Shown here: positions 50,521 to 52,599 of the stretch, piece by piece | Numbering within the stretch: the first letter of the stretch is position 1 | How the letters are laid out: each line of letters begins with the position of its first letter | Virus genome (UHGV): UHGV-0240527 | Reading direction: 5' to 3' (one strand) | DNA length: 64,000 bases | Origin: a virus | Notes under the pieces: generated by a model | Seen by the model: the letters and a program-made list of their open reading frames with translations, nothing else | Told to the model about the DNA's origin: nothing | The model's database searches: none | Made by a program: the position numbers and the translations under genes

Positions 50521-50559
50521 AATGACCTCAAAGTTATATTAAATTTTGTATTACGTTGA

Positions 50560-50985
50560 GTATAAAAATAAGCTATAACACCTGACTTGTCAACAGATTT
50601 TATAGCTTATTTGGCAGATTTTTTATAAGGCTACTGCCATCCTTCCATACCAAACCCGACCTCACCTCACAAAACCATACCAAACCCAACCCTACCTGAC
50701 CAGACCTCACCTCACCAAGCATTACTTAAAAACCCTCTTAGAAGACTCTTAAGTGATGTAAGTCTCATTTTAATGTAGCTGAGACTAACTACCCACACCG
50801 AACCTCACCTGACCTAACCGTGCCTTACCACACCTCACTTAAAAACCCTTTTAAAAGACTCTTAAGTGATGTAATCGAATTTTTATGTAGCTCCGATTAA
50901 CTACCCGCACTTTACCAAACCTCACCCTACCCTACCAGACCTTACCTAACCGCGCCGTACCTCATTAAAAGACCCTCTTAAAGAC
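50560..50985. repeat. composite repeat region: CA-rich ACC-type tracts plus conserved modules M1 (AAAAACCCTCTTAGAAGACTCTTAAGTGATG) and M2 (TAAGTCTCATTTTAATGTAGCTGAGACTAACTACCCACACC)
   Basis: modules read directly in two copies here and again at 52225-52390. Confidence 0.6.
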
Positions 50986-51014
50986 CTTTTAAAAAGGAGC
51001 CTCCGAAGAGGCTA
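50986..51014 (-). terminator. intrinsic terminator after the 51025-51465 gene
   Basis: on minus strand GCCTC-TTCG-GAGGC hairpin followed by TTTTT. Confidence 0.5.
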
Positions 51015-51024
51015 CCTAGTCAAC

Positions 51025-51465
51025 TTAGAAAGGTTTTCTACGTTGCTTGTTAATGTTAGCTTTCATAGCAGCTAAATGGTTTTGCTGTTCAATTAGTCGT
51101 GAACGTTCTTGATGGCTAAGTGCCATAGTGTTCACATTCTCAATCGCTTGAGTGGCTTGCTTTAAAGCACGACCAATCTTACCAGACATTTTACGTTTTG
51201 CAATAGTTGCTTGATGCTTAGGTTCAACCACACGATAACCAACACCCATTGAAGCAACCAGATAAATCTTCTCTTCTTTAAGAAGCTTCTCAATAAACTT
51301 CTCAAGTCGGTTTAGACGTGTAAGCGCATAAGCCTTCATTTCATCTTCGTACTTAACAATGTCACCTTGATAAGTTGGTTTCACAATACCTAAGAAGGCA
51401 TCCATCTCAGAATGTGATACAGTGTCACCGTAACTAAACTTTGCTGCTAATGCTTTTGTATTCAT
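51025..51465 (-). CDS. hypothetical protein (repeat-flanked cassette)
   Basis: ORF track. Confidence 0.5.
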   Translation of the reverse strand: MNTKALAAKFSYGDTVSHSEMDAFLGIVKPTYQGDIVKYEDEMKAYALTRLNRLEKFIEKLLKEEKIYLVASMGVGYRVVEPKHQATIAKRKMSGKIGRALKQATQAIENVNTMALSHQERSRLIEQQNHLAAMKANINKQRRKPF

Positions 51466-51467
51466 AA

Positions 51468-52070
51468 TTAAACGTTACCTTCTGAAATAACTTCTACAGA
51501 AAAACGACCAAAGCGTGGACGCCAATCACCTACACCACAAAGGTTGCCAGCATTTTCAAGAACCATCAGAAGTTCCTCTTTGGTGATTTGCTCTTCATCG
51601 AACATCAAACCGAACTCTACAGACCAGTCACGGAAGATTGGACGGTAGCTCATAACTCGTGCTGTACCAATCTTAACAGACTTAGCATAGATGAAGTCTG
51701 GATTCTTAGCAAGTTCTTGTGGGTTTGCTGGACAGTTCTTAATAGTCATTGGGAAGACTACATCTGTCAGCATAATGGCTCGGTCAATTACCTTACCAAG
51801 TTTGTTGAGTTTTGCACCAGACTTGATACAAGCCTCAATCATCTCACCGTTCATAACAAAACCTAGCTGCTCATCGTAGTAACAAGAGGTTACCAGTTGG
51901 CTTTCTGCTAAGAGCGCATAGTCTTCGTCAGTCTTTTTACGTTTACTGGACAGAGACTTGTGATATTTTGTCAGAGGGTTTAATGGGTCTGACAGCGTAT
52001 CGTTATGGCTCAGGAAAGGACGAGTACCAGTGATTTTGATATTTAACAGTTTCATAGCATTTAGCTCCAC
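51468..52070 (-). CDS. hypothetical protein (repeat-flanked cassette)
   Basis: ORF track. Confidence 0.5.
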
Positions 52071-52074
52071 ACTT

Positions 52075-52395
52075 TAGTTGATTGTTAAGTTGTTTGTAAA
52101 GAACCCTCAACAGAAGACTCTTTAGAAACTTGGTAGATTTTTAACGTGGCTACTACCATCCACCCATACCAGACCAGACCAAGCCAAGCCCAACACTACC
52201 GAACCGGACACGACCAGACCTTATTAAAAGACCCTGTTTAAAGACCTTTTAAAAAGATAAGTCTCATTTTAATGTAGCTGAGACTAACTACCCACACCAA
52301 ACCATAGCATACATCGCATTACCGGACAGAACCATACTTTACCAAACATCACTTAAAAACCCTCTTAGAAGACTCTTAAGTGATGCTGGTGAGTA
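52075..52395. repeat. second copy of composite repeat region (CA-rich tract, M1 and M2 modules)
   Basis: about 45 bp of M2 identical to copy at about 50755-50800; CA-rich tract parallels 50640-50720. Confidence 0.6.
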
Positions 52396-52599
52396 CCCGT
52401 TGGTTTATGATGCTCAGTATACTCACCAAATTTTCTATGTCAACAACTTTTATAAAAAAGTTCTGATAGCTATATGCGTCACGAAACAAAAGATTGTAAA
52501 CAAGACACCCATTGCAAAAGATGTGTCCAAAAGCTTACTTGCAACGTATGACAATACAAAGACAACCAGTATAAATAGAATGACTGTACTGAACATAGT

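Follow-up and report, generated by a model that had tools for sequence, protein, structure and literature searches.

The closest described systems to the locus analysed here are the VIPR (Viral Interference Programmable Repeat) systems of phages, which comprise a minimal RAMP protein (Vipr), an accessory gene (vap) and RNAs of about 100 nucleotides (nt), the vrRNAs (bioRxiv 10.64898/2026.04.26.720920,.720927). According to the same two preprints of 2026, a vrRNA consists of 9-16 YNNGG repeats followed by a tail, which in the SUSP1 clade contains a pseudoknot. In the cryo-electron microscopy (cryo-EM) structure of SUSP1 Vipr (PDB 36pp), one protomer is bound per GGYNN unit, a helical filament is built on the RNA and the GGY triplets are sequestered. 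The NN dinucleotides pair with double-stranded DNA, of which every third base is skipped, and the resulting R-loop triplex represses transcription. In the preprints, SUSP1 vrRNAs are expressed, co-purify with Vipr and silence the transcription of their targets, and perturbation of GGY is reported to abolish the silencing. The preprints further apply a target cut-off of at least 80% matching NN bases, mention vrRNAs encoded by satellites, and describe Vap1 as a predicted DNA-binding protein that enhances protection; their authors propose VIPR as an ancestor of CRISPR effectors. Here, we describe a gene pair and its flanking repeats at positions 50613-52443 (minus strand) of the UHGV virus genome UHGV-0240527, of which the whole analysed stretch of 64,000 nt is referred to as the window. 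With a probability of about 95%, this is a type II VIPR locus, composed of vipr, vap1 and five vrRNA genes and apparently aimed at a satellite of Escherichia coli.

The VIPR system is already known, and the window locus is an orthologue of a described and structurally solved system, which leaves it little novelty. It shares with the type II VIPR of SUSP1 (Ounavirinae, Suspvirus) the same M1a, M1b and M1c hairpins, the A-type and B-type tails, the flanking promoter and hairpin, the GGY/NN unit design and the gene position, since in both phages the vipr/vap1 pair sits between the DNA ligase gene and a 127-amino-acid gene; the targets also lie on the same kind of E. coli satellite. The differences concern the genus (Felixounavirus versus Suspvirus) and the guide repertoire. 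In particular, no NN code was read in common, SUSP1 has four vrRNA genes (one upstream and three downstream of the protein genes) whereas the window has five (two upstream, U1 and U2, and three downstream, D1 to D3), and the upstream guide U1 has, unlike in SUSP1, a degenerate GGY pattern. Within each vrRNA gene of the window, a sense-strand hairpin (M1) is followed by 9-15 GGYNN units and then by a 34-nt tail predicted to form a hairpin-type pseudoknot.

A likeness is also present to Class 1 CRISPR-Cas, in which Cas7/Csm3 assembles on CRISPR RNA: both rely on the RAMP fold (RRM core, G-rich loop, thumb) with one protomer per periodic RNA segment, on a variable guide part capped by a conserved structured handle, and on RNA-guided recognition of foreign DNA. 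Unlike Class 1 CRISPR-Cas, the system is encoded by a phage, and the window has no repeat-spacer array, no cas1/cas2 and no other cas genes. The VIPR guide is moreover non-contiguous, as two of five RNA bases pair with two of three DNA bases, whereas a CRISPR spacer pairs continuously, and VIPR is described in the preprints as silencing transcription without cleavage and without a protospacer-adjacent motif. CRISPR-Cas itself was rejected: a repeat search found no array of 25-40-nt direct repeats, and Rfam, which would include CRISPR repeat models, gave no significant family on either strand. The only RAMP gene is vipr; around it lie vap1, the DNA ligase gene and phage genes without an assigned function.

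Since the genes at about 47.9-57 kb lie on the minus strand, the locus must be read on that strand. Both genes delimited in the first-pass annotation are real and lie on it, with the refinement that vipr most likely starts at the ATG at 52055 (195 amino acids), as in the SUSP1 annotation, and not at the GTG at 52070. Searching PDB sequences with a profile of the Vipr family gave one strong match, the 'SUSP1 Vipr protein' (36pp_D, E = 2.6e-80). The window Vipr is identical to it at 191 of 195 residues (98%), and Vap1 at 144 of 146 (98.6%) to the product of the SUSP1 gene in the same position. The identical residues include H17, K33, R39, E71, M72, K82, G87, K88, R138, C173, D177, W178 and R179, the 13 positions through which, according to the preprints, Vipr recognises GGY and contacts DNA, with a mutational test for five of them (bioRxiv 10.64898/2026.04.26.720920,.720927). 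An AlphaFold2 model of Vipr (predicted local distance difference test score 94.4) has the RAMP fold, with Csm3/Cas7 and Cas6 as top fold matches in the PDB (E down to 3.5e-5). The family has more than 500 members, carries neither a Pfam domain nor a name, and shows in its alignment a C-terminal G-rich loop whose sequence is present in the window Vipr. Pfam holds no family for the product of either gene, and PHROGs gave only families of unknown function (phrog_5926 for vap1).

The repeats around the gene pair had been described as C/A-rich tracts combined with two modules, M1 and M2, and every one of these elements is present at its position, far above chance. M2 is a 41-nt sequence (TAAGTCTCATTTTAATGTAGCTGAGACTAACTACCCACACC) shared by both sides in exactly two copies (50759-50799 and 52258-52298; 0 expected from 100 shuffles). 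The three copies of M1 (CTTAAAAACCCTCTTAGAAGACTCTTAAGTGATG) also fall on both sides, at 50725, at 50838 with two mismatches, and at 52352 (0 expected). For the ACCNN tracts, ACCNNACCNNACCNNACC with at most one mismatch gives 30 matches, all within 50644-50961 or 52163-52220, against 0.08 expected per 64-kb window, and a fifth, degenerate ACCNN tract is found at 52292-52346. On the transcribed strand these become (GGYNN)9-15 tracts. The five predicted vrRNAs measure 77-107 nt and contain 9-15 units, in keeping with the published 9-16 repeats and lengths of about 100 nt.

The composition of the units carries the same signature. Over 63 distinct arrays from 29 related loci, position 1 is G in 87% of units and never C, position 2 is G in 99%, position 3 is T in 94% and C in 6%, and positions 4-5 are variable, which yields the published GGY/NN motif. 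The tracts are almost wholly different between phages whose flanking genes are 92-97% identical, and they also differ by whole units. On the 3' side of the tracts, M2 is the predicted pseudoknot tail of the vrRNAs, as supported by covariation. Indeed, among 14 distinct tails, 93.5% of the cells are paired, compared with 72.7% in shuffles and 28-39% in slid controls; the covariation score was reached by none of 500 shuffles, and nine of 11 pairs changed on both sides. Pairing in the pseudoknot helix is complete (100%), and three of its four pairs show double changes (variants GUAG/CUAC, GUGG/CCAC and AAGG/CCUU); the five pairs of the outer stem are likewise 100% paired, with compensatory changes. 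The third M2 copy (50873-50906), for which a stem kept by compensatory changes had been proposed, behaves accordingly on the transcribed strand: AGTCTCA/TGAGACT is replaced by AATCGGA/TTCGATT, and pairing is retained with one G-U pair.

Comparison beyond close relatives points in the same direction. Scanning IMG/VR for (ACCNN)6 returned mostly low-complexity coding repeats; filtering for high-complexity clustered arrays, combined with tblastn, then gave at least about 30 contigs in which short conserved spacers separate high-complexity (GGTNN)n arrays grouped in clusters, and Vipr homologues (20-49% identity) in the same fetched stretch as such arrays in at least about 27 unrelated contigs. 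Two unrelated IMG/VR contigs with distant Vipr homologues display other array designs: one (L065, 2200-3400, plus strand) has 13 consecutive (GGTNN)10-18 tracts with the AT-rich spacer GGAATGGTTTAATGAATTTAATTT, and the other (L074, 2100-2620, minus strand) has nine tracts separated only by TTTGGCAGGT. These designs probably represent other VIPR types.

Long repeats on both sides of a gene pair had suggested a cassette mobilised by recombination. As far as variable presence is concerned, this idea holds: comparison with related genomes showed that vipr and vap1 are both absent in 10 of 29 related loci, and that loci carry from at most one up to five repeat modules each. For instance, FO1a has one degenerate tract and an M1 between the ligase gene and the 127-amino-acid gene without vipr/vap1, and UAB_Phi87 has two tracts, again without them; both resemble deletion products joined within repeated modules. 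What does not hold is that the repeats are the ends of a cassette, because they persist where the genes are absent and because (GGTNN)n arrays pair with Vipr homologues in unrelated contigs, where the same 5-nt design occurs with different spacers. Since, in addition, the GGY/NN pattern is constrained, the pseudoknot covaries and the target code can be decoded, it is very improbable that the repeats serve mainly to move or delete these genes, in the manner of the PeSL (promoter-early stem-loop) cassettes. Gene loss by recombination between the repeated modules is plausible, though only inferred, and such recombination is likely a side effect and not the function of the modules.

PeSL cassettes are known from T4-type phages, where the optional genes of a hyperplastic region, whose content varies between close relatives, are flanked by structured intergenic modules that recur. 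The window modules differ from them in being guide-RNA genes with a periodic code and not promoter-terminator units, and they contain neither a strong promoter nor a good sigma-70-type one. In a promoter scan, the total number of sites equalled the shuffle expectation, and only two border promoters and the terminator after vap1 were convincing. A T4-type cassette was rejected since strong promoter-like sites mark just the two outer ends of the locus and do not recur in each module. The further suggestion that the modules are unusual promoters or leaders finds no support in the same scan, as good sigma-70-like sites are found only outside them, at 52443-52416, just beyond the range of the first-pass annotation, and at 50593-50565; for the latter, the annotation of phage ASO1B also gives a promoter. 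The arms GGTGAGTA (52388-52395) and TACTCACC (52420-52427) of an inverted repeat of 8 bp, 24 nt apart, were also observed; the right arm overlaps the -10 hexamer of the promoter of the first vrRNA. In ASO1B a terminator is annotated where this inverted repeat lies, and it could be an operator instead.

As G-rich (GGTNN)n sequence that follows a strong promoter, the tracts might in principle act as a replication origin, with DNA prone to form R-loops or G-quadruplexes and with primase sites of the T7 gp4 type. T7 primase sites are pentanucleotides containing GGT or GTGT, which counts for this possibility. The G/C strand asymmetry of the non-template strand is strong as well, the tracts lie beside ligase and polymerase genes, and Felix O1 has a T7-like polymerase and primase/helicase (PMC3185647). 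However, only 18% of units have a C directly 3' of GGT, where a T7-type site would carry its cryptic C. Tract sequence is also hypervariable among near-identical phages, and in some relatives a degenerate tract is all that is present, or no tract gets through the array filter. Since the same design also stands beside Vipr genes in unrelated viruses, and since the tracts are fully explained as guides with matching targets, an origin is hardly credible, and it was dropped because the base after GGT is unconstrained and Vipr was identified. An iteron-type origin or partition site was rejected as well, given a period of 5 bp and not 10-11 and a structure with G-U pairing that is specific to the sense strand; no initiator and no ParB/StbA-like gene was found among the Pfam and PHROGs results. 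In the record of phage KhF3, a repeat that lies about 90 bp away from the ligase gene and does not belong to the GGYNN tracts bears the note 'possible binding site of StbAB', an unsupported annotation.

A 5-nt period with a 3-nt constant core, a 2-nt spacer and 9-15 units is also what would be expected from leader-RNA binding sites of a TRAP-type ring regulator, which binds triplets separated by 2-nt spacers and would here attenuate the downstream genes; hairpins indeed flank the tracts, which are on the sense strand. The known binder of such tracts, by contrast, forms a helical filament on a discrete RNA of about 100 nt that guides DNA binding, and the NN 'spacers' carry target information that an attenuator would not need, so that regulation of this kind is scarcely to be expected. 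The 5-nt period had likewise led to a rut site for antisense transcripts and to a G-quadruplex or R-loop element being considered; like the TRAP-like attenuator, they were superseded by the identification of VIPR. The proposal of protein-binding arrays, made in the first-pass annotation, was right in substance, as Vipr protomers bind the GGYNN units in the SUSP1 cryo-EM structure, with the binding taking place on RNA.

The VIPR reading makes the guides decodable, and their targets point to a satellite. The window carries a baseplate gene at 36794-37591, beside the tape-measure gene. Its DNA is 91-95% identical to that of a chromosomal gene annotated 'phage baseplate protein', and it has a match in 474 of 5426 complete E. 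coli genomes. The chromosomal gene sits in a satellite of about 10-12 kb bounded by serine recombinases (loci L151-L162) and inserted at ymdF/wrbA, yecN/yecD or yciI/tonB; this satellite has captured a Felix-like baseplate gene. Twelve diverse satellite copies of about 490 were scanned with the published rule of one skipped nucleotide, against 300 shuffles. The best match of U1 covers 21 of 22 NN bases (95%; none of 300 shuffles) and lies inside a 236-amino-acid satellite gene, in frame and with the skipped base at the wobble position; the site is found at the orthologous position in 10 of 12 copies and reads TTAAAGATGTCACCAAAGGAAATTACCTTTGT in NZ_CP035884.1. D1 matches at 21 of 24 bases (88%; none of 300 shuffles) at 46-80 nt upstream of the same gene, and its predicted site is present in NZ_CP038380.1. 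D3 matches at 23 of 30 bases, with nine consecutive perfect units, over the ribosome-binding site and the first six codons of the next small satellite open reading frame (ORF). The three guides converge on about 0.8 kb of the satellite and point to the coding sequence, the promoter-proximal region and the downstream junction, respectively, of one 236-amino-acid gene. Skips of 0, 2 or 3 nt gave at most 77%, which is background, and only the 1-nt skip gave matches above it; a scan with the skip rule found no self-target above background in the window. Given that U1, D1 and D3 converge on one gene of a satellite with such a baseplate gene, the phage most likely uses the locus as a weapon against the satellite that parasitises it.

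Several points weigh against this assignment. The match of D3 is marginal, at 77% below the 80% cut-off of the preprints and reached by one of 300 shuffles. U2 and D2 have no target above background in the 12 satellites, and exact-pattern scans of IMG/VR gave for each a single match, which is the chance level (that of U2 extends to only 19 of 24). Although its code matches at 21/22, U1 may be a guide in decay, since GG is intact in only six of its 11 units and perturbation of GGY abolishes silencing in the preprint; its tract sequence is identical in UAB_Phi87. The satellite copies examined are 12 of roughly 490. The targeted 236-amino-acid gene belongs to no Pfam family, the name 'transposase' being a RefSeq annotation only. 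Finally, RNA ends, formation of the ribonucleoprotein and silencing are transferred from SUSP1, and the mechanism proposed for this phage rests on orthology with that 98%-identical system.

By analogy, the vrRNAs would be transcribed from the promoter at 52443-52416 and by read-through, and would then be trimmed at or near the M1 hairpins. Vipr protomers, one per repeat unit, would build a helical filament in which GGY is hidden and the NN dinucleotides are displayed. These would pair with double-stranded DNA bearing the same dinucleotides one skipped base apart, (NNx)n, and the resulting R-loop triplex would block transcription, an effect that Vap1 would enhance. The phage would in this way aim the locus at its own satellite parasite.

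An M1 hairpin (M1a, M1b or M1c) is conserved 5' of every tract and of vipr. The M1 hairpins fold about twice as stably in the sense as in the antisense orientation (-17.5 versus -8.6, -11.1 versus -4.7 and -12.1 versus -7.7 kcal/mol), a strand specificity that is due to G-U pairs, and each of the four one-sided substitutions observed switches between a G-U and a Watson-Crick pair. A text search of the available parts of the VIPR preprints found no mention of such hairpins or of vrRNA biogenesis. M1 may serve vrRNA biogenesis as a signal for processing or as a boundary, with RNase III as one candidate enzyme.

Guides are also present in phages that lack the protein. Arrays resembling vrRNAs, with tails, are kept at the syntenic spacer of Felixounavirus loci without vipr/vap1 (L005, L006, L008, L012, L018, L022, L023, L025, L026, L028 and SP116). 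Over all related loci, guides of at least 10 units match satellites at 0.80-0.93 of their NN bases, compared with at most 0.77 for shuffled controls, and guides from vipr-less loci do so at 24/28 (L012), 23/26 (L022) and 26/30 (L023). Salmonella phage SP116 (KP010413.1; L163 and L164) has two such arrays, at 59362-59429 and 59505-59547, and its 15-unit guide matches a satellite at 26 of 30 NN bases; in its complete genome, no Vipr homologue was found by tblastn or by a profile hidden Markov model. A similar situation is present in the satellites, as five of the 12 carry on their minus strand, at about 4.5-5.6 kb, a single vrRNA-like array of 7-13 units, and Vipr is absent from all 12. The orphan arrays of vipr-less phages are either guides used in trans or recent relics. 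It can be suggested, tentatively and at odds that remain unfavourable, that they are functional and are loaded in trans by Vipr from a co-infecting vipr+ phage, with M1 as an undescribed processing or boundary signal.

With regard to the surroundings of the locus, the window belongs to a Felixounavirus (a Felix O1-like myophage). The 2.6 kb around the locus match 231 phage records at 80-99% identity, almost all from Felixounavirus, with Escherichia and Salmonella as hosts. Two records labelled as Campylobacter phages (e.g., A126, MG065668.1) and one labelled Staphylococcus are 97% identical to this region (match H69 included) and are probably mislabelled or contaminant sequences. The genome papers of Felix O1 and wV8 leave the repeats without discussion, and GenBank records of relatives tag parts of them 'DR_4', 'repeat_region' or 'possible binding site of StbAB' without explanation. 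Genome termini of the Felix O1 type were ruled out at the locus, as the region maps to 57.8-58.9 kb of the end-defined UAB_Phi87 record (terminal repeats of 608 bp). The spacers flanking the gene pair measure 504 nt and about 380-530 nt, the second depending on whether a 48-amino-acid ORF is counted. Located between the ligase gene and the VIPR promoter (52450-52596, minus strand), this hydrophobic ORF occurs in the window, UAB_Phi87 and KhF3; it is missing from FO1a, where the spacer is about 150 nt shorter. The features of the locus are collected in Table 1.

Table 1. Features of the predicted VIPR locus in transcriptional order, with window coordinates.
Feature	Position	Strand	Remarks
Sigma-70-like promoter TTGACA-16-TATACT, upstream of first vrRNA	52416..52443	-	11/12 consensus matches; predicted activity
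M1a hairpin directly 5' of vrRNA U1	52347..52385	-	About 17-18 bp with G-U pairs counted; -17.5 (sense) versus -8.6 kcal/mol (antisense)
vrRNA U1	52260..52346	-	11 YNNGG units (52292-52346) and 34-nt A-type pseudoknot tail (52260-52293, = M2); NN code TT AA AT TC CC AA GA AT AT TT GT
M1b-type hairpin 5' of vrRNA U2	52224..52255	-	
vrRNA U2	52132..52223	-	12 YNNGG units (52164-52223) and B-type pseudoknot tail (52132-52165; GGGTGGATGGTAGTAGCCACGTTAAAAATCTACC)
M1c hairpin in vipr leader	52092..52129	-	Overlapped by weak promoter-like site (52100-52071)
vipr	51468..52055	-	195-amino-acid minimal RAMP protein; guide-RNA-binding filament subunit by orthology
vap1	51025..51465	-	146-amino-acid VIPR accessory protein
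Intrinsic-terminator-like hairpin after vap1	50998..51013	-	AGCCTC-TTCG-GAGGCT and T run
M1b hairpin 5' of vrRNA D1	50965..50997	-	
vrRNA D1	50873..50964	-	12 YNNGG units (50905-50964) and variant A-type tail (50873-50906) with compensatory stem changes; NN code GA AC GC TA AA CT AG AG GA TT AA GC
M1a-variant hairpin 5' of vrRNA D2	50838..50872	-	
vrRNA D2	50761..50837	-	9 YNNGG units (50793-50837) and A-type tail (50761-50794, = M2)
M1a hairpin 5' of vrRNA D3	50720..50758	-	
vrRNA D3	50613..50719	-	15 YNNGG units (50645-50719) and B-type tail (50613-50646; GGAAGGATGGCAGTAGCCTTATAAAAAATCTGCC)
13-bp hairpin (50566-50612) enclosing sigma-70-like promoter TTGACA-17-TATTTT (50593-50565)	50565..50612	-	Promoter for next gene (50137-50520); locus boundary

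Collectively, VIPR represents a newly described way in which RNA reads DNA by a non-contiguous code, and a locus of this type is recognisable from raw sequence alone. With the window, a second repertoire becomes available, made up of five guides that have diverged naturally and have concrete predicted targets on a satellite widespread in E. coli. The targets of this phage's guides are new here, and the vipr-less relatives and satellites that keep vrRNA genes are, together with vrRNA biogenesis, of remaining interest. What is useful beyond the known system is the map of targets, the orphan guides of relatives without vipr and the still unexplained hairpins 5' of the tracts. Phages of the Felix O1 type, in use for typing and biocontrol, allow a direct test of the conflict between phage and satellite. 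If orphan guides are indeed loaded in trans, Vipr would be a shared resource exploited by both sides of this conflict.

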